Positions 21,701 through 63,200 of a DNA stretch of 64,000 nucleotides are shown one piece after another (within the stretch, counting starts at the first letter, position 1; every line of letters starts with the position of its first letter). Made by a program: the position numbers and the translations under genes. The notes under the pieces are model-generated. The model was not told the origin of the DNA and searched no databases. It was given only the letters and a program-made list of their open reading frames with translations. The DNA comes from Pocillopora damicornis. Its lineage: Eukaryota. The stretch spans positions 434,001 through 498,000 of the forward strand of contig NW_020843367.1 in the NCBI RefSeq assembly GCF_003704095.1. Direction: 5' to 3'.

Positions 21701-21938
21701 GACTGAAACGTTTGCTTCGTCTGCCTTGAAAGAGAGAATAAACAATTCCTTAGACGCAAAAGCTCCATAGACGCTTTGAAAACTTGTGTTAGTAAACAAA
21801 GTAAATGAAAAGCCGCTGACCAACCAATCTTGTTGGCAAACGGCCAGCAGCATCTCACTGAGAGCATGAGCTGAAAATCTAGCAGAAAATTGTCGAGTCA
21901 AGTCAGAGAAAAAGTGATACAGAGTTTGATAAATCAAG

Positions 21939-26543
<4,605 letters not shown>

Positions 26544-35000: not shown

Positions 35001-38000
35001 AAGATGTGTTAATGGTTGCATGTCGATGAGTGGCTGTTGTTTTACATAAGCCCACAAATATGTCTATCCAACTTGCTTCTTGGTGGACATAAATCAATGA
35101 AAAAGATCATTTTTTGATGCAGAAACTTTTAAGTGTTCATTTGACATACTCTCTTCTTTCCAGGTATCAGCAATGAAGTGTGGACTTCTGCCCATTTCCA
35201 TAGAAGCTCTAGTAGTGAGTCCTTGCTTTTATTTTGCATTCCATTCTAGTTTCAGCTTTGCATCTTTGTATGTTGATAAGTATTTTAGAATATGCTGAGG
35301 GAACAGGTTGAGACTGAATCAAAGTGATGTGGGTTTCACACAATTCTGCTCTGAAGGGGAGGTGCTACTGTTTCTTGAATTTTGACAAAAAAGTGTCACA
35401 TGTCTGGTGTTGTGGGGTATTATTCACCCAGACTAAGTTTTAGACCCCTCCCATGTAAATTGGTGATTGAATGGAGAATATGTCTGAAGGAAAACATTCT
35501 CTTTGGCAAAATTTGTAAGGTCCAAGTAGTATGTGCTATGAAAATTGACGCTAGTTCTTCACATTATTGCAGCAAAAACACTGTCTGAATCTATCATCAT
35601 TTTCAGATAACTGTATGAATTAGGATACAATGTATATGCTACACTAACCATACCAATTCCCTTTCATCATGGAAAGTTAGAACAATTGATTACATTTTCT
35701 TGTCTGAATCAACACCTGGCTTAATGACACTTGTTAATACAGGGTTTGTTTTCTTAACTCTTCAACTCCCAAGATCTCGTTAGTGACTCTCCTTACAGTC
35801 TGCCATACTGTTCTTGTGATGTTAGTTTGGAGAATTTGGTATCGGATCAACTTATGATACCCTAATTGATATTTCTTTATTCTCATCACTCATCTGCTTG
35901 ATATTGTATTTTTACTGTAAGGAGAAATTCTGTCTTGGTCACTCATTGGTCACTCATGGGAGTTAAAGGGTGAATACCATTTAACTTGCCCTGCATTTGG
36001 ATTAATTTCATATCACATATTGATGCTTATAAAATACAAAGTGTCATTGGCAATTTTCATGCACATAGCTTGTTTTTAAAAGATAGCTACTTTGAATTCA
36101 TGTAGGGGGGAAAAAACTAAACAACTCCTTACACTTTTTTAATTGTTTTGTTTACAGTTGGGTGAATTAGCTTACCATGATTTTAGAGGGATTTTTTCAA
36201 ATGAAGAAGAAAAGGAGTCAATAGTAAAGGACATTGGTGAAGAAAGCAAGGTATACTACCACAGAATTTAATGGCATGTGCTTGCAATCTACTAAAAGTG
36301 ACATCAAATTCAAGCAAAAAGGAATGTCACCATCTTTCATTATGAAAGGGGTCACAACAAGATGAGTGACCCCCTATTAACTCAAAATTTCACTTTTTCT
36401 CTGACTCCAGGTAAATTCCCTGACTTGTCCCTGACATTTAAGAAATTTATTTCTCCCTGACTTTTTCCTGACCTGTGGCAACAGTGATTTAGTTTGTAAC
36501 TCTTGTTGGCAGTTTAACAACCACAATTTTCAAAGGAAGGATTCAGGATTCAGATGTTTTTTTTGTCTTACTCACAAACACGCTACGGTGAAAACCACTA
36601 AAACTGACATAAATACAACCTGCTTTCTCTTGTAAGGTAATGGTACTCAGAAACCATGGTATTGTCATTTGTGGAGAGACCATTGAAGAAGCATTTTACC
36701 TGGCACATAATGCTGTGAAGGCTTGCATCAACCAGGTGAAATATTCCTTTTGACTCCTGTTTATTAAAGTGATTTACAATGTGAACAGCAGTCTTAAATT
36801 TACTTTGGTAATGGCTTATGGAGGTCTAGTTCAAATGAAATCTTGACTGACATGAAGTATTGGAATGTGGTCATTACATCCATTGTGCATTATCATTTAC
36901 CTGTGCTAGTTCCAGGCTGCCTATGAAACAGAACATGTACATATTCCAGGAATACACAAACACTTATTGTCATTCACACAGTATGAATACAAGCATAATA
37001 CATCAGTAGCTCTACCAGTCATAATTTATATTATTGACTATTTATTTACAATCATTATGACATTTTTATATTTGTAGATAAAAGCTGTTGGTGTTGGAAT
37101 TGATAACCTCATCAAGTGTGAAGATTTTGCCCAAGAGCAAGTGGTTGAGACAGCCCAAGAAGGAGGAGGTGGTGTTAACTCTGGTGACATAAAGTGGAAG
37201 CGAGGAGAAATGGAGTTTGAAGCAATGATGCGTTTACTGGACTCAATGGTAATGTGGCAATTCATAGGATATATATCTCTTTGTAGTGTCAGGGAGTATT
37301 TTTACAAGTTGTGCCATATTCTGACAAGGCTGCAGGTCATGTCAAAATTAAAACCAAAAGTAAGAATTATACAAAACAAAATGTCTAACAAGTAATTTAT
37401 CATCCAGCTGCTCTATTTCATGTACATTTGGTATAAGTAAAGAAGCTGTTTGTGATAGGTCTTGCATAAAAATTGCTGTGGATAGGTTTTATAGAGTTCT
37501 TAAAATAACCAGCTGTTGTCCAAAAATCCATACAATATTACAAGATATTTATACTTGATTCATGCATTTTCAGACTCTACTTAGTGCTATAACTGTTGAG
37601 TAATAAAGCTGTTTAATGCAATCAATGCTTGGGATGGGGCAGTGTACCTCATATGAAATATGTTAAAAACAGCATACCCTTCAAGTAGTATATTGTACAA
37701 AGGATTGCAAAATTAATTACCAGAAAATTTGGATGAAAATTTGTCCAAATATTTCCCAGAAAATCGTGTTCTCGAATAGAACATTCTAAAAAATTCCCAG
37801 AGCAGTTAAGGTTCGAGTTTGACAAGTGAGTGATGAAAATCAGGATTGAATGAAAGAATAGCAGTAAAATTCAAAGCATTAATCAAGTTGCCAAGATACT
37901 AAGATAACAGTTTCCTGAAGTTCTACAAAATTCAATTGATTGACTGTAGTATTGGTGCTGTAGTGCTAGGAAAAATCACATTTTTTTATCCAATCCATAT

Positions 38001-39304
38001 TGTGGTTTAGCTCAACAAATTTTGCAATTTAGCATCAAGAAATGTTTTGAAAAGATTTAATATTCATCCAATACCAACAAACAGATTGATTGTGTAAGGG
38101 GTGGTTTGTTTTTTCATCCATAGGGTTACAAGACAGGCTATGTGTATAGAAATCCTGAAGTGTTCCATGGTGAGAAACCTGCAGAAAGAGAGGTGACCAC
38201 CCCATCTACTGTGTCATCCACACGAGCAAAGATGTACTATACACCCGAGATTGAACGAGGACAAATTAAAAGATCCCATTCTACAGGGCGTGCAAACACT
38301 TACAGAAACCGTGTCAAATGGCTGAACACCCCAGTGAAGTCTACAGAGTACAAGAAGGACAAGGAGAAAGTTGAGTTGGAGAGTGATGAGCCCGTGACAA
38401 TTAAGGATCTTTTACCAGAAAGAGTTGACAAGGACTTGGAGCAGGTAGAGAAATAAGTGTTCCTGTAGCATTTCAAGTTGTCTAGTGAAAGCCTAACAGT
38501 ATGTATTTGAAATACTTCAAACTTTGATTGAACACTAAGATTGTCTGACATGCAAAAACTTTGAGAAATTTGTTGCATTTGATATTCCTGTCAATAACAG
38601 TTAAGAAACAAAAATCTTTAATGTTATTCTGTGATGGTTAGAAGTTAGTTAAATCTTTTTGCAACATCATTTGGTTATAAATTAAGTTAAACCCTTACAC
38701 TCCCAGAGTGATTAACATGCTAGTTCTCCTTCATAGCATCCATATATTTATCCAGCAAACAGGTTATGAGAATACCCAAACTCATCAGCTAGGAGTTGTT
38801 TTCCAAATTCTTGTACCTAATTTACAAATAAATATGTAGCTTCTAGAGGGGAGTATAAATCATTTTATCTTGGGAGTTGAAGGGCTGTATGTTGTGCCAT
38901 CATTTGAGTTCTCTCTCTTGCAACAGGCCCCTGAGAACAATGAAGTGACAGTAAAAACATCAAAAGTTGTGATCACAGAGTCAGTGCCTCATGAGAAGGG
39001 AATCAACGGTGATGAGACAAAGGAAATCAGACAAGAGTACACACACAAGACAGTCGTAATCACAACAGAAGTGAATGGTGAAGCAGGTGATGAAAAGAGT
39101 TCTGAGGTTGGAGATGAGGATGGTCCAGATGGTGACATGTTGGTTCCAGGTGCTGATTCACCAGAGCCTGAGAGCCCAGCAAAAAAGAAGGGAACAAAGG
39201 TGAAGAAGAAGAAGAGCTTTAAAGATGCTTTGGTGAAAAAGTTCAGCAAGAAGGGTGAACGGCCAGCAAAGTATGAAAAGAGTGATGCAGAGAAAGTGGA
39301 ATAG
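32061..39304 (+). CDS. ADD1: Adducin (hu-li tai shao / alpha-adducin-like)
   Basis: Phase-0 exons 32061-32498, 32829-33059, 35164-35214, 36158-36250, 36637-36735, 37078-37248, 38124-38444, 38927-39304. [71 protein letters not shown], and a basic MARCKS-like tail KKKKSFK. Likely pre-dates the vertebrate ADD1/2/3 split. Confidence 0.93.
35754..35974 (-). mobile_element. Related MITE subfamily in an adducin intron
   Basis: ttaactcttcaactcccaag...ggagaaattctgtcttggtcactc...gggagttaaaggg. Confidence 0.6.
38687..38886 (+). mobile_element. Related MITE subfamily just upstream of the last adducin exon
   Basis: ttaaacccttacactcccagagtga ... tgggagttgaaggg inverted ends. Confidence 0.55.
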
Positions 39305-42651: not shown

Positions 42652-45419
42652 TCACTTTTCCTTGGTTATTAAATTCAGTGGTGTCTGTTCCATCTCTATT
42701 TCCTGTCCCAAGTCTGTGGCATATAGCTCGAAGAGTTCTTTGCTTTCTAGGACAGAAGGATTTGTACTATTCTTGATCTCATCTTGTTTCCTTTTCTGTT
42801 CTCTCAGTTTCCAGGCCCAGTGCAAATCCTCTGACCACATCTCCAAAAGAATTTATAATTGAGCAGGGTAACAAAATGCATTGATGCAAATAAGGAAATG
42901 TTATTCTATTGTGCATCTATCTAATATTGTGAAAAATGCCCCATCAAACACTTTATACCTCTTACTAACCAAGTTTGAGGTGCATACTTTAAGTTATTGT
43001 CCAAGTTTATTCCTCTCAGATCTATGGCCCAAGCAAAAAGAATGTTGGCCATAAAACGGAGCAGAAAAAGCAAGCTGAGAAACGAGGTTAGTAAAATAGT
43101 CATTGCATCTCTTGGTTCAAGCAGAGGGGGAGGATTTCAATTGCTCAAAATAAATTTTTGAATTTAGTTTGCTGTACAGTGAAATGCTTCCCATTAAATT
43201 GACCAATGATCATGCACATAATAACTGTGAGAGAAAATAAGATCAATTATTTCCTTACCTCTGATTCATCAGGTTGTAACAGAATAGCTTTTGAGAAGCT
43301 TTTCACCCCCTATGGAACAAAGCATTTCAAATATTTTGTTTTACTCACAAGAAATATTGTCAGTTATAAATTTGTTTATAGCATTGTTTTGAGCCAAAAC
43401 ATTTAGAAATGTTGAGCTTTCTATACAAATCTGGTCTTAAAAGTAAGAAAATTGAGATACATTGCTAAACTGCTTAATTTACCTAGCAGTTTTACTGAAA
43501 GTATAAGAAACTTCCTCTGAATACCATTGCAGACATTACATGTCAAAAGACATAGTGATTTAGATGTCATGTTGATAATGTTCTGGAAAATTAAAAGCTA
43601 GGAACATCTACCAGAATTTCCTCAAACAAGATTTCTCAACAACCACGTCAAAATTCTTGTATGCAATAACATTTCATAAAAAAATTGGTAAAGAGTTTTC
43701 TTAAGAATTTGTGGTCAAGTGTCTAGGGATCTGTCTTCAAACATGTAGGGTCAGAGTAGCGTGATTATTGCTCTATGTTCTAATAAAAAAAAAGCTTAGG
43801 CAGAGTTGATTCAGGATCACCAGAATAAATTCCCAGCATTCCAAATACCTAGCTTTGTCCCGTAGAGACACTCCTCCCAGATTTTCTGTGATAAATTATG
43901 GAGAGCTTTGAATTGAGACACTGGCTACCACTTTACAAGCTATCTAAATGGTTTACTATTAATTTATTTATCAATTTCTTGATGATGTTTAATATATACA
44001 ACAATCAATTGACATATTTAGCAGATTTAGCAAAAAGTAGAGGATATTACATGGCTGCACAGAGGTACAAATTTTATCTTTGAATGCTGAAAGTATCTCT
44101 CACAGCACAAGAAGATAAAATCCATATTCCCAAGCGGCCATGTAATGTTCTGTTTATTTTATTAACACTGATGAAATGTTTAAAGAACTGGCTGCACGCC
44201 TGAGCAGGAAGCTCTCTTGTAATTGACTTATCATGTTAGTAACCATGGCAACACCAATATCCTCACACATGAAAGATAAAATAGTATCTTCACTGCGTGC
44301 GATGAAGATATGATTCTTCAGTAAAAGGAAAAATCCTGGTTTTTCATCAGTATCTATATAATAAAATGGGATACCCTTGGTACCTACCATCTCAACATCA
44401 CCATACCCCATCTGCGCACGACCAAGAGTTTGATAGGCTACATACCAACAAGGGTTCAAAGAAACTGCTTTTTCTGCTGCTTGTATAGCAGGAAATAACT
44501 CATGTAGTTCTAGTAATACCTATATTACACATGAAAAAAAAAGCTAATATGAATAACAACTCATATGACAGATAAGCCAAGGCTTAAAATCCTAGCCTAA
44601 GCCCTGGAATTTTTAAATTCTAGGGTGAGAGGAGAAAAGTACCATTACCTGTGATTTCATTTCATAAAGCTTTGCATTGTTTGGAGTCAACAATACCGCT
44701 TCGTTCCATTTTCCAAGTGCTTCCCAGTACCTGTCACAGCATCAATTGAAAATAAAGATGCATAAATATCAAAGTTAAGGACAAATAAGATTAAGTAAGA
44801 ACCTTTGAACCCGTCATAGCCTAATATCAGTATCCATATTCTCTGTATTCATCTCTATACACGTCTTTCGGCACTGACTACGAGAATTCATTCAACAATC
44901 AAAGCTTCTTTGGTTGGCAATCATCGCCTTTATCCTCATGATCTGAATGAATAATTCAGTAGTATTACTATAGGACAAATTGGATAATGGTCACTCTTTG
45001 GATTTAAAGGGTTAGGAAGAAGCAAGCAAAAGCTTCAAGGCAATAAAACATTTACAGCAATTTAGAGGAGGCCCAAGTACGCAAAGAGGTGCTGAGCCTA
45101 TGAAGTGATAAACACGCTACTCCACGGGAAGAAACTATTCTATTTTAGATATAACTAATCAAAGTAACATCAATTTCTAAAAGTACCACCTCTGTTGCTC
45201 TGCGAGAGAAACTCCTTCTTCTTCGAGCCGCTTGCTTTTGGTGACGCTATCTTCAATGCTTTTCACACCTTTTTTCACTAAAAGGACTCGCCAGTCCAAT
45301 TCAAATGGTTCCTCTACGCCATCAGCTGAATTTTCGTTGGTTTCATCGAATACAGCAGCCCTTTTCTCAACTAAATTTTGAGGCAATTTTCTCTTCCAGC
45401 CAAATTTCGTCGCCATCAT
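42652..45419 (-). CDS. TTC33: Tetratricopeptide repeat protein 33
   Basis: Exons 45419-45190, 44730-44649, 44519-44388, 43309-43259, 42840-42652. FGWKRK, SKRLEEEGVSLAE, LYEMKSQVLLELHELFPA, QTLGRAQMGYG, WSEDLHWA. Confidence 0.92.
44035..44365. repeat. Adjacent hairpin/TIR repeats in TTC33 intron 3
   Basis: atattacatggctgc...gcggccatgtaatgt, and ttattttattaacactgatgaaa...tttcatcagtatctatataataa inverted pairs. Confidence 0.55.
44806..45015 (-). mobile_element. Diverged copy of the MITE family in TTC33 intron 1
   Basis: cctaatatcagtatccatattctc...ggtcactctttggatttaaagggttag. Confidence 0.6.
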
Positions 45420-46306: not shown

Positions 46307-49300
46307 ATGAACCGACAAAGATGGATTGCAGCAGTTGGTGTTGCGTTTACAAGTAAGGCTCTTTTCTATGGCATTTTGAATTTTATTCCACTTTTAAACA
46401 TTCTCCACTTGCTATCCAATCTCGAACGTTGCGAGTTAAGAAATGCTTTTAAGTGAATCGGGTCATGCGAAAAAATTAATCTTAGAGAAAAACAATTACA
46501 CGGCTATGAAAAGCTGCAAAAATCCTTAAGGGAAGGGCAATGCTTTCATTTCACTGTTTTCACGGAAGCTGTACACATTGCAACAAGCAAAGTCGATTTC
46601 AGGTTCACGGGGGACAAGTAGGGCGTATCAAAACATCGAACATGTAATGGTGGGTTTTTTGATGAAAAAGATTAAATGATGGCGGCAAACGCAGAGGAAA
46701 TTCAAGAAAAGCACACTTAATGACAGATGCTACAAATTTACAGATGTCAAGTTTTCTTAGCTAAACATTTGCCGAAAACGCCCAAACGAAGCTATGAGAG
46801 ACTGAAAATGTTTTTCTAACAACCGAACGATGTATATGTGAAACTTTGAAATAATTTTTTTTTTATCAAGAACCGATGAGTTACCGCTGGCTTTGAAGCT
46901 GAAGTGAGATAGCATTAGTTGACTCGCCTTCGTAAGGCGAAATATGTTACTGTCTTTTTCCTTTGGTAATGTCTACCTGCAATCGCCCGAATGCAGATCT
47001 TAATCAGGAAATAGTTATACCGGACTTCTTAATGAAATTTAGCTTTCAAACGAGGATGTTAAACCTGAGTTAAAGAATTGAAAATTGATTCCGAGATCGT
47101 TTGTTTTCTTCTGATCCGTTTGTTGTTGATGTTGTTTATTTTTTGCTATGTTTTGTTGTGGCAGGCATAAAAACTTAAGTTTCGCAAACTTAGAGCACTT
47201 ATATAAAAACAAGACCTTTTTACTCGATGTCGGTGCCTCCTTTTCTGCCAGGGTATATTCCTGTTTCATACGGCTCTTAATTACTCTACAGGCCTTGATG
47301 GTTTTTCAAAGGTTTTGATTTTAAAAATGTAATGAACATAAAAGTAAATGAGTTACAGATTTAGTGTTATGGATCCATTCAGTGTAATTACACAGCCGGC
47401 AATGACACATTTGGATCGTTCTTAGGTTTTAAAGATCCCGAAAGGTGACGATTGTTACCTTCAAATGGTTTTTTTCTCTTTTATTTGACCGGACATATTA
47501 AATTGTTTCTATAAAAAGCTTTCACCTGTTACAGAAAATGGAAATTCTGATTTTTATTTAACAAATACGCATTGGAAATTTAGCTATATTTTGAAATAAT
47601 TCAGTGATGCAGAATTCCAACCTGAAAGTGTACCTTGATCAGAACCACGACATTACTGATTTTTTCAGTGTTGGCGTAAATGAGTTAGATCCAAAAACAG
47701 TTAAAACAGTTCGACCCTATAAAACACGACGGTGAAAAGAGCGGAAAATGTCTTTGAATGCAAATTTCTCATTTAGTTTAAGTTGCCTTAGCCATTTTTA
47801 ATGATTTCATTACACACCATAAATATTTCAGGAAATTAGATAAAATCGTGTCGTCGGAAGGGTAACCTTGATAATTTAAAATGATTTTTAGATTACAGAA
47901 AATATTTTACGGTTCGTTTTCCTCAAAATGACCGGCACTGCCGTTGAAGTGTTCTAAAAATATATATTTCCCATATTGTTCAAAATGACTAAAATGAAAC
48001 ACGCATGATTCCCTGTAACTTTGAGTTTCGTGCTTACGCACTCTTCAAACAGATTTAATGAAAAACATTCTCGTAGGTTAATTTATATCTATATATAAAA
48101 GGTAGCTGCTGATTACAATAGGTTGTTGTTATATAGTAGGTGAGAAAAAGCGAAAATTACAATGGGTGTGGATGTATCAATGAAGGACAATGAGGCAGTA
48201 GGTGTAAATATATTGACAAAAGTCTATTGTAGCGGGAAAGCGTCAGATGTTCTTTAGATAAAACTTGTTTTCGTGACGGTATTCGGATATAAGTTCAGAT
48301 CTTTTATTCAGTAAGTTTTTCTCACCTATTATATAACAACAACCTATTGTAATCAGCAGCTACCTTTCTTTATTTATATAAATTAGCCTACAAGAATGTT
48401 TTTCATTAAATCTGTCGGACGAGTGTGTAAGCACAAAACTCAGAGTTACAGGGAATCATGCCTGTTTCATTTTAGTCATTTTGAACTGTATTTCGCTCTA
48501 CACTCATGTGTATTGAGCACTTTCCAACATCATTTGCTACAATTTCTCACAATTATTTCCCATATTGTAGACCTTGCCTCTATTTTCGCACCATTTCAGA
48601 ACAAGGTCATGAGTATTAAACTTTCGCATAACGGACGTCGACTACCAGCAACCTCTTTTTCTGTGAAGTCTGTCGTACAAGTGAAAACAAATCAGTGAAA
48701 AATACAAACAAACAAACAAGTGATGTTAGTGCCTTGTGCCTCACTCCCAGAGTTCTGCACTGCGCACTAACATTTTTTTTTTGACTGATTTCTTTTGTGA
48801 CCCGCGCGACGGATTTCACTAAAAAGCAAGGACTTATTGTAGTCTATAGCCGACGACACATGGAGTCATAATACCTTTTTTTGCCGTTATTTTTCTTTTT
48901 CTTCTTTTTTAGTTTGTGGATTCTTTTGGTGTTCTAAGGCAGCTCAGTGTCACTCGGGATGGAAAGAATGGAATAAAGCTTGCTTTAAGTTTGTTCCTTC
49001 CCAAGCCTCTTTCTCAGACGCTTCTGCTGCTTGTAAAAAGGACCAAGCAAATCTGGTGTCAATTCATAGCCCAGAAGAAAACGAAGTTGTGCGAACTTTG
49101 GCCGGAGGCAAAAACGTTTTCATTGGTCTTAACGACAACAAAACTGAAGGAGTGTTCGTTTGGAGCGATGGCAGCACTGTTACATATGAGAACTGGGAAG
49201 ATAATGAACCGAATGATGGCTTTAACATGAGCGATTGTGTAATTCTGGATGGGTCGTCGTCCCGTGGAAAATGGAATGACACACCGTGTATTATGTGGTA

Positions 49301-50511
49301 TAAATATGTGTGTAAACTTACACACGCCCAGCCCTTCGATGGGAAAGGTGAGCTGATTTGTGACTTGCAGAGAGTAGTTGAATTGACAAAATTGCTCTAC
49401 ATCCGTTGCGAATTATGCTATCGCTGAAACAGAATAGGTGCAGTTATAAGAAAAAGAGTGGTTACTCAATGGAGCGCCTAGAAAATAGGGGCAGTTTTTA
49501 ACAAACAACATCAAATTTTAGGGGGGGAGGGGGTAAATTGAATCATTGCGGTAAACCCCTGGTTTAATGACTTAGTTTTCACTACCTTAAACTTAAACAT
49601 CAATCACCCTCTTATTGCGTCAGTTATTTCATGTTGGTCACAAAATGAAAAGGATTCAAGCCAATGAACAAACAAACAAACAAAAATTTAACAGGTGTTC
49701 AAAGTTTGAGACAATTTATTATAGTTTGCAAATTACATTAATTTTATTCCTATATTTAATTACCATGCTGTCAGTCACAAGCGCCATCCAAATTCGGAAG
49801 GTTGTATATTACTGACTTTCAGTAAGGGCTGTGTCAAATTTAGTAGTTATTTTTAGTTGCATGCACACTTGAAGTTGCTAATTAACGGCTGGCGCGAACC
49901 CTAATAATCAATTTAACAGAAACGATGGCTGCCTAAGTTTCAACTTAATGTAGTATGGAGCAATTGGCTGATGGGAGGAATAGAAAAAAATGCAGTGATT
50001 TACTAGTTATTCCGGTTAAAACTCGAGGAGAGGAATACTTCTTAATTTATACCTTCCTCTTGTGGAAAAGACCTTTTCCTCTTTTTTCTTACAAGATATG
50101 GTTTTTCCATAGAAATGAAAAGGACCCTCATGGCCTCAGTCCAAAGAGTATGCATATCTTATTAAGCGATGTCACACCCCTAAACGACATCACACAACGT
50201 CTTATAAACACCTGAAACAACACACTTTTTTTCATTTCACCACAGACAAGAGCGCAATAAAGAAGGAACAATCCTTCATCAGCTACGAGTGGAATGCTCT
50301 CATTAATCATGTGATTTACGAAGAATTAACGTCATCCGCCATTCATTGTGCTTTTCTTTGCATGAATAATCCAACATGCAAATCAATCAATTATAAATCA
50401 CAGCACGCGGATGGCGAGGGAGAATGCCAACTAAATGATGCTACGGCAGAGGAATTTCCGCTGGATATCATCCATTCGTCTCATTCTACTTACACTGTCC
50501 CTATTGTTTGA
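46307..50511 (+). CDS. Secreted C-type lectin (EPN/WND) with C-terminal PAN/apple domain
   Basis: Exons 46307-46352 (signal MNRQRWIAAVGVAFT), 48913-49347 (long-form CTLD: CHSGW..C, LVSIHSPEEN, FIGLND, FVWSDG, WEDNEPND, DCV, KWNDTPC, YVC), 50246-50511 (ALINHV..CAFLC..PTCKSINY..CQLND). Junctions are phase 1 throughout. First exon is inferred. Confidence 0.85.
47978..48488. mobile_element. Foldback/MITE with ~170 bp inverted arms in lectin intron 1
   Basis: 47978-48150 is the near-reverse complement of 48317-48486 (gttcaaaatgactaaaatgaaac...ggtagctgctgattacaataggttgttgttatat); right end reads ...gaactg|TA. Confidence 0.8.
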
Positions 50512-52485
50512 CCACAAAACCAACGAGGACCATGTGACAGACAGACTATTATGGGCTGCTTAAACGATCCTACACTGATTAAACTCACAACTACCAGCTA
50601 CTCTTATCGTCATATCATATGTAATTTAAAGGGGCTCTGAATGGTTTCGACCACTCAGCGTTTGGCATTTTGACACTAGTTTGCTGGACGATGTAAAAAT
50701 GCCATTGCAGTGCAACTGACAGGCATTTCTGTGTAAACAGATTCAAATAAGAAAAATCCCAACCTTTCGTTGCCCTGAAACATCAACAAAAACGATAGTC
50801 AACATTGGCATTTTAGTTCTTGATGAATAGCAATGAAATTGGGATTAACAGTATTTGCGCTTTGGGACCTCCAACATAAAGTGGCTCTGAAACAAGTCAT
50901 AATAAAGATATCTTGATAGGGAGCCAACGTCACTGATGTGTTATTCAACGAGGCCCTCATAAAGTAAATGGCAGAAGTAATAGAAGTGCCTGAATAGTGA
51001 AAACTGTAAAACGTAACGGACTGGTCATAGTTTATCACCGAAGGGGGGAAGGGCTCGAAGATTTTGGTTATGTCACAATAAAGTTTACCTGATTTATACA
51101 CGCGATTCATACACGATTCGCACCTTTTTTTTCTTAATCGCATCTTTTTCCCAGCTAATGAGAAAGCTTCGCTAAAACACAAAACTAATCAGATTTAAGA
51201 GCTTGCTTCACCAATCAAATTGCAGAAAAATGAAAGACAGCTTTTGCAACTTTTTAAAAACCAGCTGAGTACTGGATCAGTAAAATATTTGTAGACTAAA
51301 AACTCCTGCATTTGAGCGACTGAATTTTGTACTATCAAAATGGATGTAATACAGTGGTATTTGAACTAGTTGAAATCCGAAATCATACCTGTGGTTTCAA
51401 ATCAAACTCGCCCTCGAGTATACTTTCTGACCAAACTGCACTCCACCGAGTTCAATTTTCATTATTTATTCTTGTGGCGTTAATGTTTGATTCAGGGGTG
51501 ATATTATGAGAAGTTTGATAATATTCACTCCGAGGGGCTAACGAAACGGAACCTTAAGGAAATATACATAGCAGGGGTCGAGTTTCACGAAAACGGAACA
51601 ACTTTTTCTGAAAGACATATTTATTTCCAGTTTCTAAACAGCAACAAAATTATCTTGATCACTCTCATCACGAGCTAAGCTTGAGACGAGCTCAAGATGA
51701 TTTGAAATGAAGTGCACTATATCACACATGTCATGGGGAAATGTGCTCGTCATTTGATATGTACACTAACATACCTGAGTTGATGAAACAGTCCTTATAA
51801 TCATTGACACATATCAGGGCTTTTCCGTACGTTCTTGAAAATGCCCATCGTCATTTAAAAAAATTCTTACGCAAGATCGGCGTTCGTCGGGTATTTTGAC
51901 AATGTAGTTTTTGCCAAGTAGGGTCGATTCCTTAGCGAGGTGTTCTGTTTTTTGAAATATTAGCCTCTTGTCGTTAAACTGACTGTCGTAAGTGTCTCTA
52001 TGTTTCTTGCAGCGTATTAGAAAACGCTTGTTAGAAACAGCGTCGATGCGCAACGATATTGTTGCGTCGTCACAATATTATATATCACTTGAAATTAAGA
52101 GAAGTCTAAACAACCAAAACGACCATTTCGTTGGGATAAGGTCGAGGGAAATTAGAATTATGTTTAAATTAAAACTTTAATGATCATAAATCTTTGCTAG
52201 AGTTACCAGTTTTGAATTGCCTATGAAACCTTTTTCTCAACCATGATATTCGTATCCACTACTGCCGTTGCGGTTGTTTCGACTCCTTTAACACAGACTA
52301 TGGACATTTTAAATTTGTAACAACTTTCAGTACCAAAGCAATGCATACTAAACTCAATATTTAGCTGCTTATTGTCAAACGCTTGAAAGGTAATCTACAA
52401 CTATACACAGGGATTAGGGACTCTTTAACATCTTTTGCCATGAGAAAATTAATTGCTAGCCCTGAGGAACAGGGTTAAACTATAT

Positions 52486-55400
52486 CTATATATCGCATAT
52501 TTCAAAAAATTTAGTATGACCGATTAGGCCCCCTGGGTTTGTGCTTTGTGTGGTTGTGTTCCACGCGTAATAGTAATCTTGATGAAAAAAGTAGATCGTA
52601 TTCGTTTTCCTATCGACGAAAGCACTATCTAGATCGTTAGGAACACCGTACCATTCTTCTGAAGTAAGTTTCGGGTACCCTGTACTTGTAGTATCTAATC
52701 CTTGATTAAATTTATAAACTTCGTTACCTTTAAAAAAGTAGGTATAATGATTAAGAGTAGAAAAGGCAGCATCGATATTGTCTGGTATCCCTGGCCAATA
52801 ACCGGCTATACTTAGGGGATAGCCTCTGTACATCACGTCTCTATAATTGTCGTATTTCCAATACTTTGAACCTTTGAAAATGTACGTGACGTCCCCAGTG
52901 CTATAATCAAAAACTTCATCGGGGTCCTTTGGGAAAGAAACCCATCCATTGACTATACCCAGCGGATAGGTTGGCATAGAAACGGTAGTTTCTGCGTCAA
53001 GTTTCCAGTAATTTGTTCCTTTCATGACGTAAGTCGCCCAAACACCATTCTGATGTTTACGCCAGCTAAAAATACTTTTCACTCTGGGGACACATTTACC
53101 TTAGAGAGAGAATGTAACGCCTAACTTAGACCAATTATGACATGACAGAACAGAATTAAAGACATTGGTATTCATACTTCCTGCACTGTAATTTTCGACA
53201 TCATTATCATTTTTATAGTTGCCGCCATTTTTATCATCATCATCATTTCTTTAACTACTGTCATATATACGCGCTATGTACATTGTATGCTCGAAACACA
53301 GTTGTAGAACATGGCATGCGTGACCCGTTTGCTACAATCAATTCGCACCATAAAGCAGCAAACGAAAATAGATATGTTGTATACGTAAAGATGATATCAC
53401 AACCTGTGTAGCCTTGATTCGTGGTTAAAATGGTGTGTTAATCTCACACCTAGATCCTACTGCGTAACTAAAATGTACTTTCTACCGTTTGACCGTGGAA
53501 GGACTGAGTACGAGACTAATAGTAGATTAAACGTATTCTATCTCATGACTCTATTCTTCGCATAATAATGCCTCTCGTACATGACGAAGATAATGGCTGC
53601 CAATCTCAAAAATGCATAGAAAAATAAAATTGACCTAAGTTTCAAAACAATCTATTCTGGGCGTTGTTTGGCGACGTGTAAGAAACCGATAGCAGTTTAA
53701 AACCCATAAAACCGATGAAATAGCACACATTGTATTTTATATTAGGGAAGACAAATAGAGTACAGAGTTTAACAAATTAGACCAACAAGGTGCAACAAAA
53801 GAATAACATTCCACCGATGTATTTTATGGTAAGTAATGGACGTATAAAGTAATACCTGCAAGATGCTGAATACCCGCGATATCGTCATCATCGAGACACA
53901 CGTCTGTTGTGTCCAGGCTTATGGTTGGATACATAATGGAAGTCGAAACAGAAGAATGCTTCAAACCCAGACTATGTCCTATCTCATGAACTGCGGCACG
54001 AAATAAACTTTTACAGCCAGGTTGGACGGGTGAGATGGTTTTGTTAAAGAATGCTGCGCAGTGGGTATAAGGGATATCCCATTTCTCGTCAGCGTCAAAG
54101 TGGACCTCACCATGAGGAGGATAGAAAGCATGCGCATAACTGTTGCCAGGACCGTCGAATGGATACGGATCATTGTGACCATCTAAGACCAGATTTTTAA
54201 AAGAAATTTGGTTAACAAATGATACAAGGCATTAGCGGAACACCATTCTCTACGGAATATAGCTCTTATTCGAAATTCCAACATCTCCCCCTCAGAAATT
54301 GTGTCAAATGCCTTAAACAATTTTTTTTGTGAATGGCAAAATCAACGACCGCGACTTTCTACACATTGTGCAAGCCTTAAGACTTGGGTCTTGCAGACCT
54401 TTTCTTCTGAGCCACTCGCTCGCGAAAGTGAACTTTTAACCTTACGCACCTTCTTATTCTTATTTCGCTGAGATTGAACACCTCTTGTCTAAATTCCCCA
54501 CCCCAGCCAGGCAAGGTTCAAATTCCCTACCCCCACGGATGACGGCCATATGCCCGTGGGTGGCGCGGGGGAATGTTAAAACTTCGCATTGATCGGCATA
54601 TTACGTGACTTCCATGATTGACCACAGCTACAGTTCCCAGAGGAAAGGATGCTGTGCAAAGGAAGACAAGCGAGGGAATCCGTAACATAGGCCAAAATGC
54701 TTGCTTTATGCGCAGTAAAAAATAACTCAGACGAAATAACGACAAATAAGTGAATGATCTATCGAGTACGTTAAGCAAAGCGTGCAAAGAGTAACATGTC
54801 TCGTAGACTGTATGCTTACAGCTGTTTCGAGAAAGTTTGTTGGAAAAAAGGACATAATTGCACGCGACAGTTTCGAAAAGTAATCTAGGTATCCAGTAAT
54901 CAATGTTTTAATAAGTCAAATGAAAAAATAAATTCCTCCAACCCGCAATGCCTCGTCCTTACAGTAACGTTTTTCTCAGATTTCATTAGATCCTGAGGTC
55001 AACGTGACCTGAAAACTACCCACAATACCTTTCGAGGTTGAAGCGTGAATTTTAATGCTTTTATTCCGGTACCCTTTTTCGAAACAGCCGTATTCAAAAC
55101 AACGACTGCTGTTATTCTAACTCCGTTCAGTTTATACTTGGGCAGTCAGCATACGGTGCGAGTCTGGCAAAACCGTGTCTGGTTATACATAGTTTATAGT
55201 GAAAGTAAAAGTATGCACAAGGAACACTCTTCCTTTTTCACCACCAGAAGAAAAAGCCGCCATTTTGTATATTCTATCAACTACCGACACCCAACGGGAA
55301 GTCAGGGTTTTAATAGAGTACTTCAATTTAAAATTGTGATCACATAATGACATTCCTAGCATTCTAGAGTAGCTCTGTCTCTCCGTCAAAGCCGGCGACA

Positions 55401-56723
55401 GCGGAAATTCAGGCGGAAATTGTAACACGATAAGTTGCGAAAAATAACCCAAAGAAGATAAAAGGCGGAGAGGACTTTTCCAAGACAAGAATTGATAAAA
55501 CATCCCTAAAAATTCAGCGCAAATGACGTTTTTCGATCAATTCTCTTTCTCTGTTGCTTAACTGGAGTTGAAAAGAAAACAGATTTTTGAAGCTCTCTTG
55601 TTTTCCTTAAAAAACCCTAGCCAACATCCATAAAGCATCTTCCACCCCCCTCAGTTTTTCTCCATGTTTTCTCCAGTCTTGTTTGCACGCAAAGATTTCC
55701 TTAAAAAAGTCACAGTCAGTTTTTAATATATTGTGAAATGGCGGAATAATTAACTCTTGGTGTTGATATTCATTCGCTAGGAATGTAAAAGATGATAAAA
55801 GGGTACAAGACATATACAAAGTGGTACGGACGAAAAAAATTTACTCTTCTGTCTTTCATCAGATAAACTACGCACGCAAAACAAGCAAATAATAATAATA
55901 ATAATAAAATATATATATATGTAAATAAATGAATACACATCACTGAGACGCTACTAATTGCTGTTTCTAAATTAGTGTCATTGAAAAATGCCAGCAGCGG
56001 TAGGTAGGTGGCACAATTCAGCTTGCATCTAATCATGCTATTGAGGTAGATTTCAAAGTCACTTACTTTTGAGAAACTTGAGTTGTATGTCTACGTTACT
56101 GTCCAAGTGAGACTGCCGCTGGAACGTGAATCTACTTACTTCTGCCCAAACCCTAAATGCCGCCGTAAAAACCGCTGCAGCCATGGGTTGTACGTTGGCA
56201 TACCAGATAAGATTTCTGTGACCCCACGAGGAACTTGATAGCGCATAGCGACGATTTCGAACCTGCAAACTGTTGATCTGTGCCAAGTAGGCGGTGCGAT
56301 TAGCCAGATGTGCATCTTTTGCTGCCGTCTTAGGCTGCCGTGGAACCGGTTTTCTTCTGATCCACGATCTTAAAATTCTCTTCACTGTCTGCGGGCGTTT
56401 TTTTAACGTACGTTCGGCCATTTGTCGAATTTGTGAACTGCTGTCAAAGTCCTACGATCGGTTCAGTAAAATAAGAGAATGATGATACGGCGAGTGTCAA
56501 GGGCGCATGACCCATTGCCATCTAACTTACGCTCAATAAGTACCAGATTACTGACCCCTTTCAATATTCATTGTTTAAGACTAGTAAACATCATGATACT
56601 TGCCTCAAATGAAGGAGGTTGTCCATTAGATAACAATTTTCTTGAGGTGTGTGGCCTTGTGTCGCATTCGCTTAGGAGCGTCGTCAATAAAATTAATGCC
56701 ACTTGATAAAATATACACTCCAT
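52486..56723 (-). CDS. Secreted matrix metalloproteinase (M10A) with hemopexin domain
   Basis: Exons 56723-56604 (signal peptide, GC donor), 56451-56067 (propeptide, furin site RNRR|YAL, AFRVW, DIQLKF), 54182-53856 (GHNDPYPFDGPG, AHAFYP, VHFDADEKW, HEIGHSLGLKH, SIMYP, DDIAGIQ), 53099-52486 (hemopexin YIFKGSKYWKY, GYPLSI..WPGIP, IDAA). Confidence 0.9.
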
Positions 56724-57044
56724 CTTTCAGTGTTGTCAGTCGGTTCTATTTTCCTCGTGTGATCGGCACGGTTGTCTCTGCAAGTTTGACGAATCAGTTA
56801 TTATCGTAAGTATAAGTATGCTTGTGTTGTGAAGTATAAAATTACATACCACTCAAATTACACCGGAAATCTCTGCTGGCGGGAAACTCTCCCATTGATG
56901 ATGGATTAATTATCTTTGTTTGCTTGTGTGTGGCGTCAAACGAAAAAGAAATTTTGCCAAATAGGAAAACCAAAAAACCGAGAAAAAAAAAAAAAACGTA
57001 AAAGAATATCAATGCTTTAGATTTCCAGTCTTTGCCTCGTATCG

Positions 57045-57215
57045 CTTTCTTTCACTTTCCTATCGCAAATTTTTTTATACTATCTTGAGCTTTGCCGCAT
57101 TTTGAAACAATCTTTGTACCGCTACACGACGTCACCGTCCCGAGCCAATTGTGTGTGTGAGTGTGTGTGTGAGTCATTCAGATTTGATTTGAAAAGGAAC
57201 TTCCTTCCTTGCCGG
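57045..57215 (-). promoter_or_regulatory. Putative MMP promoter: TATA, CRE-like, (CA)n, AP-1, ETS
   Basis: Minus strand TATAAAA 57079-57073, GTGACGTCG ~57127-57135, (CA)n 57151-57170, TGAGTCA 57170-57176, AGGAAGGAAGT ~57199-57209, GGAAAGTGAAAG 57049-57060. Confidence 0.5.
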
Positions 57216-60200
57216 AACTTTTTATCATACGTGGTATGTACATAAGAGAGTTATTGGAAATAGTTGAAATCCGATCAAACCATCAGTTTCATCTTGGGAC
57301 TTCGAAATTTGAAAAGAAAAAGATCTTTGTTCGTTGACACTGTTCCAGCACTGCATAGCTTGAAATTATCGTAAAACGTATTAAAGGAAAATCTTTCACT
57401 GTGTGTGATTCATTTACGTATGGGGTATACAGGATATGCGTCTAAAAGAAACATGAGGAAAAAAGAAAGCGAGGGAAAGAAAACAGTGAACCAAAAGTCG
57501 AGAGACGAAATGATAAAAAGGAAAATAAGAATTAAGATTGTTACTATTGTCGGCTATAACTTCGTTATATCATCGTGTAATCAAACACAACGACGGACTT
57601 ACATTTACGAATAAAATATCTCGTTTAAAAATATGGGTCTTTGCTTATTCACAGGATTTCATGAAGCGTGTTGGTCTCCATCGGAACCTTTTCATGAACG
57701 TGCTGAGACCCAAATATTTACATTCTGCCATGTTCTGGGGCCTGACAGTCAAAGGTTGAGAGAGTGAATGATTAAATGGTATGTTGGAGGATGTCCCATC
57801 AATCAGGAAACCTTTTTAAAGCAAATTTACTGTGTTTTATACTGGCCGAACAGCTTTCGACTTAAGTGAAGAGGTACTACCACAAAAGTGTACGGAAAAT
57901 AAAATCATTAATTACAAGGTTGTTACCACATTTCGTTCGGCGGGAATAAAAAAAAAAGTTTGGAACTCTTTAACTCTACATGATATCTGTCTCATATAGA
58001 CTTAAAATTCTTTGTCTTAAATTTCTTTTCCTCTCCATAAACAATACAGTACTCTGTCGTTATTATCGTTTCGGATGTAGATCTTCTGTCATAATCCGCA
58101 ATTTTTTACGTTACACAATCAAAGAACAAAAGTGCCAAGGTATCCAAAAATTCCTTTCTTAAGTCCTTTTGTTTGAAAATTTAATTAAACAGTATTTCCT
58201 ATCCAAATCTCTCTTCATTCACCGAAAAAAAAAAAAATAAAAAAAAAAATAACCCGATCACTTAACCCACAGGCCCCTCTTAAAAAGGATACTAACAAAT
58301 ATTGGCAACATTCGTGGTTTTGAGCCAATACCTTCTCGGAAGAAAAAATCAGTTTACTAAATATTTTTCCACTAAATGTTAAAACAATCTAATCCCCTTG
58401 GATTATTAGCCTTTGCCTTATTTGCTGAATACACCGGCCGGCATGCTCATTAATTTGCTGAAGCTTATTCTTCTGGGGGAAATTAAATGAATTAGCATTT
58501 GAAGGTCTCCGAAAGCGTTAATGAATGCAATGACGTAGGCAATGCAAAGGCAGGTAGGCAGGCAGGCAACTCTTTTTTAACTTGCTATGTTGTGGTATAA
58601 CATTCCTATGACTTTTAACACGTTCATAAATTCCCCTCACGCATCGTTTCCTGAAAAGGTCCAACCACATGTAAACAAACTGGGCATAGTCGAAGTGGTT
58701 GCGTCAAAAAACGTTGCGACTATTTCTTCAGTACTGTACATACATCTTTAAGCATGAGTTGTTCGCCCATGATTAGGAATGCATCGTGAAACAAGGAGAG
58801 GGAACCTAGTTTTTCTTAAGAAGGACGCTTCAGAAAGTAATTCGCAGCGATTGAATTTTTTCGGCGTAAAAAGAAACTCTAGCAACTTGAACTGCCAAAG
58901 GAGACAAAGTTCAGGTCGAGAAAGCGGGGAGCTCGAGTAAATTGAGAGAAAAGGCTAAAAAAATGTTAATGAGTGTAAACCTAGAGTAAATTTAGGCGAT
59001 CAGCATCTGAATTTTCCTGGCCTTAAATAAGCTTAAAGTGATGTAGACAAAAAATCTCGATATCCCATGTATATAGACGGCTATTGCTACTTAAATCTCG
59101 TTTTTTAAAAGAAATTTCACAGTTTCCAGCAGTGGAAAATTTGTGCTTAAAGGAGTTCGTGAAGTCAAATTAAGAAATGATCGCGTATAAGTTTAAGTCC
59201 AAGCCTATTGACAACGTCCCGATACACTTCAAAGGGTGTCGCGCCACTGTTAACTTTGGCGGGAATATAAAGAAGTAAACGCTAAGATGCCCTGATACTT
59301 TCCGGTCCCAAATACCGAATTTATTGATTAAAAGATAACCTCTTGTTGATTCCGACAGGTACGAGAGCTATTTCCTTTATAACTGTACACCATCAAAACA
59401 ACCACACGCGGTTTTTTGGTACGTAACACTTCGGCGGATCGTACCACGCGACAATTTGCTATTTTTAACACAAATTTTAAGATATGTTTACAAACAAAAG
59501 GTTGTGCATGCACTTAGGACACGTGATGCGAGTTCAGATCTCCATGGCTCCGTTCGTCTTTTACGTGGAGTAAAGTACATTTACCGAGAGCCAATTTTAG
59601 ACCATGGACAATCAAAAAGACCTGAATTAGATGCAAAGTACGTTTGGGGCACTAAATCAGCAGAGTTTTAACAAAAGTAAGGAAATCGACTAAGGTGGCC
59701 ATTCAGCGGGAATTTGTGAGTATGGGCCATCGCGTGAGAAGCAAATTGACTCCATTGGTGATCCTTGAGACACAACACGCCATAACTCGCGCGTTAATTG
59801 GCACCGAGGCCGATAGGTTCTTAGGCACTAAGTTGCTCAGCTGAGGTTTGCAGCTATAAGAGTAATATATAGTGCAACAAATACGTAGCAACATGGGGTG
59901 ACTCTTCTATTTGGTCCTATTTTGGCTCAGAATTCTTTTTGGACGCACAGGTGGTTTTTGATAATAAAATGCTTTTAAACAATTCATGTGGCTAACGCGT
60001 TAAATGGAACCTGACCGCCTTGAACTACTTCTCTTCTTACGAAGAGGTATTCATGTAAGATGAAATATTAGTCATCTAATCCACTAACTTAAGTCGTAAA
60101 TCGTACAGTCCTGAATTGCCCTCAAATTTTATCATGACGAAACTATAGAATCAATCAAGTTTCCAGCACAAACTACCTCAAGCCGATCAGAATGTTTCTT

Positions 60201-63200
60201 CAAGGTTATCGCTTCCCATACTCCGAGACAGATAGTGTATATTTTCATATAAAAGGGATTTAACCTCTGGGAATTCAGAGAGGTTTATCAGGCTCTCCAA
60301 GAACCGGTAAATTCATTGATCGAGCTGAAGGGAACCCAGCAAGTTATGTTGTCACTAACCGCAAGCATGTTACGAGAGCTGTCGCACATGATGAGTTCCG
60401 TCGCATGAGAACAAGGACATTTTGTTTATTTTCAGTCCGTTTTCAGTTTGCTTACCAATTACACGTAGACTCACTGACCTAAAAGTATCATTTCAAGGGA
60501 CATGATGAAGCATTATTTGAGGAAGTTCAAGTTCACGTCTAGTTACTGCGGGTCTACACAGATAACAATCTGGTTAACGCAACTTTGATAAATTAGATAA
60601 GTGTTAATCTTAAGTTTGGCCAAATTTGAATTTTAACAGGGTTGTTGTCTAGAGTTCATAAACGTTAGTGTCAATCTTAAAATTTCCTCGTCTGCATCGA
60701 AGGTGATTAAATGTTTCACAATCAAAACCTCTCATTAGCATCGAAGGTAAATTTCAGAAAACACAAGCCTGTTTATTAGAATAATTACATGATGATATTC
60801 ATAAAATTCAAGTTGTCGCATTTTCAGCAGAAGAGTTTCGAAAATAAGACAAAGTAGTTGCTATTATGAACTCTTCATTACGCAATTAATTAGAAATCAC
60901 CCTCGCCAACTGTTGACATATTTTGTTAAAAGTTTTAAATCATTTGGGTTGACGCTGTACTTTAATAAGGTTACGGTTGGGTTAAGGTTAACAGTTATTT
61001 TTTATTTTATTAATTTGCCGAAATTACTATGCATGAACAATTGCCTTTCCTAACTTCATCTGGTGATATATAACGTGGTGTCCGTGACCATTACAAGCAT
61101 AATTGAACGTCCTGTCAGCAAGTCATGAAAAGGAAGTTGTATCGAAATGGATCCTATCAAAATAAATCCAGTCTTTCCCTTCCCGAAGAAACTTAAGCTT
61201 ACGTTGTAGTGATTCACTTGGAGATCACAAGCATTTGGCTTCATTCTAAGGATTCTTGTATTTTATCTATGCTTACTGGCTATACGAGGGGCGATATCGT
61301 GGAAAAAAAAATTGAAAAAAAAGAGCCCTGCTCAAGCGCTCAGGATCAGAAGGGCAGCATTAAACCTCAGAAGTTAACGGAGCAGCACTTTTCTCAACTC
61401 GCTTATATTTTTAGCTTCGTCAGGTTTGAACTTTGCACATCTTGTTCCCACACACATAGTCATATTTAGACTACCGTGAAATCAGTATATAATTCGAAAA
61501 ACACTAACCGGGGAGGTTGAAAACAAGTGTCTCACTGAGATCAATGAGAATTTAAGTATCAGGTAGTATTACTGTTTAGGTTGATGGTAAAACAATCTTT
61601 AACAAAATTCGCCCACATCCATGACGCAAATTACTGAGCTTCTTCATGGGTGTTCATTTTTATAATTGATGATGGTGGTGAAAAGAGGTAAAAAACTTCA
61701 AAACAGAAGAATAGGAGAAAAACAAAATGAAGTTGTATAAATATAGGTCTCCCTTACCTGGAGATAGTGGTTTTCACCAAATTCTAACTCTGCTCTCGCT
61801 TAGTTTTTCGTCTTTTGATAATGTGTAATTTACCTGGATTGAACTGCCATTTATGCATTTATTGGTGCGCGCAAGCTGGTCACATGTCAAGTTGCGCTAA
61901 ACGAATAGAAAAGCATATTCAAATTTAAGCGATCAATTATCGACCGCATAGATATTGGATTATAGACACTTTATTTATGTAATTAAGAAGGGTAAATTCT
62001 CGTACGTTAATATGAACAAGTGCTTCCTTCCTGCCCGGAAATGTTTATCATATTCAATAGATATCGTACGTAAAATCCCATCAATCCGTCAGTTTAATTA
62101 AAGAAATTTCAATAGCAAAAAACATATGTTCATTTAAATCGCTAAAACATTGCGCAAGTTTAGCTACGTGTTTAACTGTTTAGCGAGGTCAAAACAATCT
62201 ATGTTGAAGGTTAAGTAAAGAAAAATTTTTTAAGATTGTTCATGAAAATTTTTTGGCCCCTAAATTAGTTTCCACGTTTATGGAGTTGAAGCCTTCAAGG
62301 CCCTGACTAAATTGCCCAGAGTTAGAGATTGAAAGCGCGACAGGCAAACTGCTCTGAATCATGTAGTCAGGCAAATGCAAAAGGGTCATATTTTTATGAC
62401 CGAAAAAAAAACGTTAATGCGTTGGTAACATGTAACAAGAATGAGTATCCAAACAATTATAACAGTACATTTAAGGTTAAATAGTTGGTTTACTCCTAAC
62501 AATTTTCAACAGAACAATGAATTAAAAATGCAAGTAGAGCTAAGAAACGAGTGCAATTCTTAAAGTAACAATAAAAAAGAACAGTTCTTGGCAAATAACC
62601 TACATTCTCATTAAAGACTTTAAAAATGTTACCATCGAAGGAAAATAGAAATTGATATTTTTTACACCAGAGCCTATTACATTAAATCAAATCTAAAGTC
62701 TTCATAGAAGAAGGTTGCGCTTTTGCAAGCTGAGAATTGCAACTGTTCTACAAAGCACTTTTAACTTTTCCTTAAAGCCAACGTTATTCATGTAATAGCT
62801 CTAGATCTCAAACGATCTTGTTGTTTCAGCAGCTATCTATTAAATCATACATAAAATTGTGGAGTTGCTTTCCTTTTCTAAGAAAGATCCGTTCAGTTTA
62901 GATCTATAATTATTCCGGATGAAGAGAAATGCATTGGATCGTTTTCTAGGGTTAATAAGGCACATCTATTTTAAAGGACGTGGGAAGACTCCTTCGAAAA
63001 ATTTCTATTCCTATCGTCCAAAATAATATTATAGTGAAAAGATGAACACCGAGTCATCTGATATTTTGTTCCTGTTATAATCAAAGAACAAGTGTGTAAC
63101 ACCTTTTGGATTCCTATACTTGCCCAACTTTATTTTATAAGTAGGGTATCATCAATAAACGGATGCTAACAGGGATTCAAAAGGTCGAAAAAGTGTATTT

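Follow-up and report, generated by a model that had tools for sequence, protein, structure and literature searches.

Astacins are metzincins with an aspartate switch, as is karilysin. For the matrix metalloproteinases (MMPs), the initial annotation of the locus described here stated that almost all members are kept latent by the cysteine of a PRCGxPD motif; this is right as a generalization, although MMP-23 and karilysin are known MMPs without such a cysteine switch. According to PMC2989691, 23 of 24 human MMPs retain the cysteine switch, and the propeptides of MT1-MMP and MMP-28 aid trafficking by way of a YGYL motif. Karilysin is a bacterial MMP that has an aspartate switch and no cysteine switch (PMC9629494).

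Below, we describe an MMP gene of the coral Pocillopora damicornis, found in a window of 64,000 nucleotides (the whole stretch of DNA that was analysed). Its product is an M10A matrixin but is not a canonical cysteine-switch pro-MMP. No prior description of a coral switchless MMP group was found in the literature searched, which takes in a minority of subscription journals; a look-up by five accessions gave no paper, and the passages of PMC3566077, PMC7853314 and PMC12549020 that were consulted do not treat such a group. Expression data for the anemone relative discussed below may be contained in the Nematostella matrisome tables of PMC12549020.

Gene structure and transcript evidence

The MMP gene lies on the minus strand (56723-52486), as do the features given below unless stated otherwise, and has four coding exons for a product of 481 residues. 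The coding part of exon 1 (56723-56604) is followed by exon 2 (56451-56067), which encodes residues 41-168, by exon 3 (54182-53856), which carries the presumed structural-zinc ligand positions, the zinc motif, the Met-turn M252 and the last helix of the catalytic domain, and by exon 4 (53099-52486), which encodes the hemopexin domain from C280 to C479 and then the stop codon. Intron 1 (56603-56452; 152 nt, phase 0) is of the GC-AG type and the other two are GT-AG; the intron phases are 0/1/1. The spliced product, as reconstructed, agrees letter for letter with P0033, the P. damicornis protein XP_027040849, which bears the database label 'MMP-16-like'.

The joint between exons 1 and 2 (56450->56603) is present in contigs of all five RNA or presumed-RNA runs (X11, X14, X1, X5 and X17); amongst the first four, which represent four studies, two are only presumed to be RNA, and a sixth run, X19, the kind of which is not on record, has no cover at this joint. 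The joints between exons 2 and 3 and between exons 3 and 4 are found in four of four runs, so that all three occur in four runs. In X17, the exon 1-2 joint lies inside a contig of 2352 nt that starts upstream of the ATG and continues into the letters of exon 3. Because exon 1 is joined directly to exon 2 in these contigs, no PRCG exon has been missed, and because residues 41-168 (from 41 through RNRR into the catalytic domain) are encoded by a single exon, there is no room for one before RNRR. The motifs PRC and RCG are absent in every frame from 52300 to 59800. Thus, the cDNA check for a missed exon that the initial annotation had suggested brought no PRCG exon to light in the contigs of any of the five runs.

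The N-terminal DNA of the gene is single-copy in the genome. An alternative start is provided by an upstream 5' exon (61758-61816, minus strand), seen in one contig of one run (X14) and spliced, with GT-AG ends, over 4980 nt to 56777; since an in-frame TGA stands two codons before the ATG, this exon (61816-61758) is non-coding for the present protein. A different loose end, at 56779 in X5, hints at a second 5' exon; a search of the window and of 122 loci, the next 40 kb among them, did not locate it. Two plus-strand joints just upstream of the ATG (57232->57432 and 57232->57654; GT-AG, runs X1 and X5) probably derive from a head-to-head transcript that runs antisense inside the 4980-nt intron next to the alternative 5' exon. 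Two database gene models, P0031 and P0032, differ at the exon 1-2 junction, where the unusual GC donor misled them; the counterpart of intron 1 in a related locus, L066 (see below), is GT-AG. Elsewhere in the window, other open reading frames look like those of an NFX1-type helicase (112-4172, minus strand), a BTB protein (20897-22144, minus), proteasome Rpn10 (25403-25771, plus), adducin (32046-39304, plus) and a TPR protein (44154-44519, minus).

Signal peptide and prosegment

The protein begins with a hydrophobic stretch, residues 1-22 (56658..56723), which is helical from 3 to 18 in the structural model and is assigned as the signal peptide. Read by eye, a hydrophobic core of ~10-13 residues, with no basic n-region, is followed by a small-X-small pattern, and by the -3/-1 positions of the sequence cleavage probably occurs after T22; C3 and C20 would then be lost with the signal peptide and fall outside the prosegment. 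The signal peptide is 100% identical in Stylophora and 57-71% identical in other stony-coral orthologs. In a comparison of one pair, window 56634-56723 (minus strand) with L066:1867-1956, the same synonymous codon is used for 15 of 18 shared residues, compared with 78 of 164 in the rest of the gene (p 0.005 by Fisher's test). Conservation at synonymous sites also indicates a constraint on DNA or RNA, and the signal-peptide exon may overlap a regulatory element of either kind.

The prosegment runs from residue 23 to residue 108, with its first part (23-40) at the end of exon 1 (56604..56657) and its second (41-108) in exon 2 (56248..56451), and it closes with a furin-type site, RNRR (105-108; 56248..56259), followed by Y109. 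It has 86 residues, no cysteine and a net charge of +16; counted from residue 22, its pI is 12.0. The median net charge of canonical prosegments (n=123) is +1, and just one of the 123 is at +16 or more. Scored with a profile built from 157 canonical pro-domains, the window prosegment reaches 1.1 bits, a value that 12 of 200 shuffles also attain, and the jellyfish relatives 62-67 bits; PG_binding_1 (PF01471) has no Pfam match at E<=1 in the window protein, and the YGYL motif (YLxxYGYL) is absent from the prosegment. The initial annotation had described a cysteine-free, highly basic propeptide of ~87 residues lacking both PRCGxPD and a YLxxYGY helix, a description that stands but for the length, which is 86 if the signal ends after T22. 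Whether residues 47-57 resemble the first pro-helix was considered too; the pro-domain profile gives this no support.

A model of the zymogen, also proposed at the outset as a check, was built from a deep alignment (mean pLDDT 82.6). Both domains are folded confidently, whereas most of residues 21-89 lie under pLDDT 50 and the exon 2 part of the prosegment is mostly of low confidence, with weak helices at 47-57 and 87-102. A second fold, from 11 Cys-free rows, is poor (mean pLDDT 51.6), and the prosegment is of low confidence there too. The models predict that the basic prosegment is largely unstructured, although low pLDDT can also reflect few homologous rows rather than disorder.

The prosegment is nevertheless conserved over short distances. 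Identities for the pro, catalytic and hemopexin parts, respectively, are 0.67, 0.73 and 0.70 between the window protein and Stylophora, 0.82, 0.81 and 0.74 between Orbicella and P0046, and 0.56, 0.74 and 0.69 between Oculina and Orbicella; within sub-lineages, the prosegment is thus near the folded domains in identity, which exceeds what a free spacer would keep. Between sub-lineages, prosegments are barely alignable (0.21-0.37) and positive charge alone persists, the seven Cys-free rows ranging from +16 to +27 with a pI of 11.5-12. The predicted cleavage site, RR followed by Y or F, is present in 13 of 13 aligned relatives.

Catalytic and hemopexin domains

The catalytic domain starts at Y109, its first part occupying the rest of exon 2 (56067..56247), and matches PF00413 with 138.3 bits against a curated cut-off of 24. 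The zinc motif HEIGHSLGLKH (residues 234-244; 53956..53988) has H234, E235, H238 and H244 invariant in 124 aligned rows, as is M252 of the Met-turn. H171, D173, H186 and H196, which we take to be the structural-zinc ligand positions, align with those of relatives. All 13 aligned rows retain the three histidine ligands, the catalytic glutamate, the Met-turn, the structural-zinc ligands and the furin site. The catalytic part superposes on solved MMP domains (MMP-12, MMP-13 and karilysin) with Z ~23 and an rmsd of 1.1-1.5 A over ~150 residues. By catalytic-domain criteria, the window protein is a matrixin of peptidase family M10A. It had been noted from the start that the furin site, HEIGHSLGLKH and the Met-turn are intact, which is correct; HEIGHSLGLKH, the Met-turn and an LDDDD sequence, however, sit in exon 3, outside the interval 56067..56723 to which the feature had been assigned.

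An insert of ~20 residues (206-225; 54013..54072) precedes the active-site helix in the alignment and contains C210 and C225. Pocillopora and Stylophora have it in full, Montipora, Nematostella and jellyfish have about half of its length, and the Orbicella group lacks it; its position is that of the fibronectin repeats of gelatinases. C210 and C264 (exon 3, after the Met-turn) are common to Pocillopora and Stylophora, and C225 is found in Pocillopora only; a C210-C264 disulfide is possible, and C225 may be unpaired. The arginine four residues before the first histidine is presumably as in MMP-1. The residue four after the Met-turn methionine is an aromatic one that lines the S1' pocket in established MMP structures. 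It is kept in 186 of 194 canonical sequences and lost in all full-length Cys-free rows, and so specificity may have narrowed.

The hemopexin domain matches PF00045 (100.8 bits, four repeats) and the structure 3c7x (Z 25.2, rmsd 1.7). There is no hinge: between the last helix of the catalytic domain and the first cysteine of the hemopexin domain stands a single residue, the canonical median being 32 (155 rows). The whole clade, jellyfish as well as corals, shows this join (residues 277-280; junction region 53853-53099, minus strand). Two residues follow the last hemopexin cysteine before the protein ends, and there is neither a C-terminal transmembrane segment nor a GPI signal; as there is no membrane anchor, the label 'MMP-16-like' is wrong in that respect.

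The ortholog group and the order of loss

Stylophora pistillata, Orbicella faveolata, Oculina patagonica and three further clusters also have Cys-free prosegments, charged +17 to +27. The Cys-free state is thus found in orthologs from three named coral families, with open frames in Stylophora, Orbicella and Oculina, and all the Cys-free orthologs share the signal peptide pattern and the hinge-less join. The suggestion of the initial annotation that the gene represents an MMP subfamily without the cysteine switch is borne out by this group and, as its orthologs also lack the switch, the window gene is no lone degenerate copy. The locus L066, which encodes P0046 (504 of 504 residues), agrees with the window gene in its intron phases and is followed by the same convergent downstream gene (56% identity, E 8e-32); the equal phases and the same neighbour back orthology with the Orbicella type. 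The convergent neighbour or neighbours of the window gene lie at 48843-50511 on the plus strand, where the open reading frames look, in our judgement, C-type-lectin-like and PAN/apple-like; the PAN-like frame is syntenic in L066.

Other members of the clade retain more of the canonical arrangement. In Montipora and L039 a lone cysteine is present without PRCG (exon 1 of L039 is outside its contig). Nematostella has kept PRCG and lost the helical part (profile 9.7 bits; -1.4 without the PRCG columns), and Rhopilema, Sanderia and one further protein have kept both PRCG and the helical pro-domain (Sanderia by motif only). Clade support is 99 SH-aLRT with P0018 in a large quick tree and 93/90 without P0018. 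Amongst the best 150 rows of a search of 50% representatives, the clade members are the Stylophora protein, a partial Nematostella protein and a 101-residue fragment; a metagenome scan gave three clade loci (L039, L045 and L066) among 79.

These states suggest a stepwise loss, from the full pro-domain of jellyfish to PRCG only in Nematostella, a lone cysteine in Montipora and none in Pocillopora, Stylophora, Orbicella and Oculina. In the free tree, the seven stony-coral rows do not form one clade, which implies two changes (one change in 8% of bootstrap trees); an AU test does not reject a single stony-coral clade (p 0.223). The pocilloporid (1.3) and Montipora branches are long. Since the free tree splits the stony-coral rows and has such long branches, stepwise loss is the simplest reading of few taxa, and its order is unproven. 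The group nonetheless forms a natural series, from full pro-domain through PRCG only and lone cysteine to no cysteine. With it, one can ask if an MMP activated by furin requires latency through zinc ligation in the first place, and for what other purposes its propeptide is selected.

Other MMPs, in the genome and beyond

A search of the genome with the Pfam matrixin model gave 46 exon matches, which group as the window gene and 25 other loci. In 24 of these 25, xRC[G/A] stands before the catalytic domain. The exception (L023/L027/L034; G000:C3262, ~163700-164900) has stops within its Pfam matches and no switch exon was found for it; it is probably a pseudogene. A further locus, L036 (G000:C3101, ~289300), reads HEFSHTLGLGH, has a truncated-looking end and adjoins a close paralog, and the paralogs L029, L033 and L035 keep PRCG with an atypical first pro-helix (WMKKY or WIKKY), two of the three being without the usual residues after the basic site.

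Outside the clade, 273 proteins with the zinc motif were fetched, and 127 passed filters for a complete N-terminus. A cysteine lies within 50 residues of the furin site in 122 of them and PRCG further up in two, leaving three with short Cys-free prosegments. These three (P0010, P0071 and P0230) are unrelated MMPs, one of them from the nematode Mesorhabditis, and their very short prosegments are possible further losses of the switch or errors of gene models.

How might the enzyme be controlled?

The initial annotation proposed that the basic propeptide acts against an acidic catalytic surface such as LDDDD. LDDDD was rejected as a special partner, as 141 of 142 canonical MMPs have DD where the last helix begins and the net charge of the catalytic domain, -6, equals the canonical median. 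The hemopexin domain is more unusual. Its net charge is -2 in the window protein, -6 to -11 in the other six Cys-free rows and +1 to +5 in jellyfish and Montipora; the canonical median (n=123) is +4, with three of 123 at -6 or lower and ten as low as -2. Hemopexin and prosegment charge are inversely related amongst 11 relatives (rho -0.91; these represent about five related lineages and are not phylogenetically independent), and the same holds for the charge of the whole mature part (rho -0.90, p 0.037, five lineage means). A charge partner would more plausibly be the hemopexin domain than LDDDD, although, with a hemopexin charge of just -2, the match is weakest in the window protein itself. 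In addition, Nematostella has a +14 prosegment alongside PRCG, so that basicity is not simply a replacement for the switch. A prediction of how prosegment 23-108 pairs with the mature protein and zinc (score 0.00, with no alignments used and with disordered partners outside the calibration) speaks neither for nor against such a contact. An aspartate switch was considered as a shared mechanism and rejected, since P0325, P0046 and P0008 have no prosegment aspartate; a glutamate ligand is conceivable.

The reading that we favour, tentatively, is that the enzyme is shielded by charge, without zinc ligation, until furin releases it. The protein would enter the secretory pathway and lose its signal after T22; before cleavage, the basic prosegment would lie on an acidic surface, probably that of the hemopexin and catalytic domains, restraining the enzyme by charge and serving as a salt-sensitive shield or a folding aid. 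A furin-type convertase would then cut RNRR in the Golgi, such that latency would be needed only briefly and zinc ligation might become dispensable; the helical bundle could have been lost first (the Nematostella state), followed by PRCG (the lone cysteine of Montipora) and finally by the cysteine. If charge alone keeps the enzyme latent, this would be a new mode of zymogen control in the MMP family. In a stronger version, which we regard as doubtful, stony corals would have built latency anew once the helical pro-domain and the cysteine switch had been lost step by step: a disordered polycationic prosegment would clamp a hemopexin domain that has no hinge and has newly become acidic, closing the cleft without any zinc ligand. 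Were this true, MMPs would have a third kind of latency in addition to the cysteine and aspartate switches, one that furin or polyanions could open; the freed polycation might act separately.

It is unlikely, but deserves serious weight, that there is no latency at all: the prosegment would be an element for trafficking, sorting or tethering that binds polyanions or the convertase, and an enzyme competent once folded would be controlled by location and TIMPs. The prosegments share no conserved zinc ligand (P0325, P0046 and P0008 have neither cysteine nor aspartate) and are of low confidence in both models, and three of 127 complete unrelated MMPs also have short Cys-free prosegments. MMP propeptides are also described as trafficking chaperones in PMC2989691; the carrier of that role, YGYL, is however absent here. 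Heparin-type consensus motifs are not kept, with none in the window protein or P0046, and the acidity of the hemopexin domain, which tracks prosegment charge, is left unexplained.

That the freed cationic prosegment has a job of its own, a bioactivity that the initial annotation had suggested, whether antimicrobial or on polyanions of mucus, matrix or skeleton, is improbable, although compatible with the other readings. The charge (+16 to +27) and pI given above, together with conservation near that of the folded domains, would suit such a role, as would the strongly amphipathic and basic residues 54-71, with a hydrophobic moment of 0.70 (background mean 0.45, 95th percentile 0.61); there is also the precedent of the MMP-23 pro-domain, which has its own function on Kv1.3 (PMC4272770). 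The amphipathicity is, however, not conserved (Orbicella 0.41, Oculina 0.47, Stylophora 0.51), each prosegment has 7-10 dibasic sites, which predicts fragmentation, and atlas searches with two prosegments yielded no feature scoring at least 0.9, nor any family above the threshold.

Alternatively, the protein might work mainly by binding, as an MMP of little or no proteolytic activity whose S1' site has been remodelled; a switch no longer needed would then have decayed. In all full-length Cys-free rows the Met+4 aromatic is missing together with every prosegment cysteine, so that narrow or weak activity is possible, with no restraint required, and the pocilloporids combine their long branch with a shortened first loop and the 20-residue insert. 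We consider this decidedly improbable, in view of the active-site, Met-turn and structural-zinc residues and the furin site being kept in every one of the 13 rows, and of Sanderia, which lacks the Met+4 aromatic yet has kept PRCG.

It is very improbable that, in the manner of MMP-23, the hydrophobic N-terminal segment stays uncleaved and anchors the protein in the membrane until the furin cut frees the enzyme: the segment is, it is true, fully identical to that of Stylophora (catalytic domain 73%) and has no basic n-region, but its core is short and followed by a typical small-X-small pattern, and the conservation reaches synonymous sites, which points to the DNA or RNA instead. Finally, an artefact, be it a missed PRCG exon or one decaying copy, has a negligible chance of being right, for although the GC donor misled two gene models, exons 1 and 2 are joined directly in every RNA-type run, the frames are open, the Stylophora, Orbicella and Oculina orthologs are in the same state and the gene is single-copy.

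Comparison with known systems

In overall architecture, the window protein resembles MMP-11 and MMP-28, with a signal peptide, a basic convertase site, an M10A domain, a four-blade hemopexin domain and no anchor. These two keep PRCGxPD, and MMP-28 also YGYL (PMC2989691), whereas the window protein has no switch, no helical pro-domain and no hinge. MMP-26 has an altered switch motif (PMC7290392), which is comparable to the lone cysteine of Montipora and L039; it keeps the cysteine and has no hemopexin domain, unlike the window protein, which has no prosegment cysteine.

MMP-23 (CA-MMP) is like the coral group in having no cysteine switch, in its activation by a single cleavage, which is predicted for the corals, and in possessing a pro-domain with a possible second function (PMC7290392 and PMC4272770). 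It is, however, membrane-anchored, has no signal sequence and carries toxin-like and Ig-like domains where the window protein has hemopexin. As the coral gene descends from a PRCG-bearing cnidarian gene, we infer from trees that do not include MMP-23 that its loss of the switch was separate. Karilysin has the same catalytic fold as the window protein (2xs3: Z 23.3, rmsd 1.1, 154 aligned residues) but differs in its prosegment, since those of the corals have no conserved aspartate, are 84-119 residues long, are strongly basic and end in a furin site.

The nearest relatives are the hinge-less MMPs of other cnidarians: Nematostella XP_032234028, Rhopilema XP_065071686 and the Sanderia protein belong to the same clade and have the same furin site as the window protein. 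They differ from it in what precedes that site, the jellyfish keeping a full pro-domain and Nematostella PRCG only, whereas the window protein has neither.
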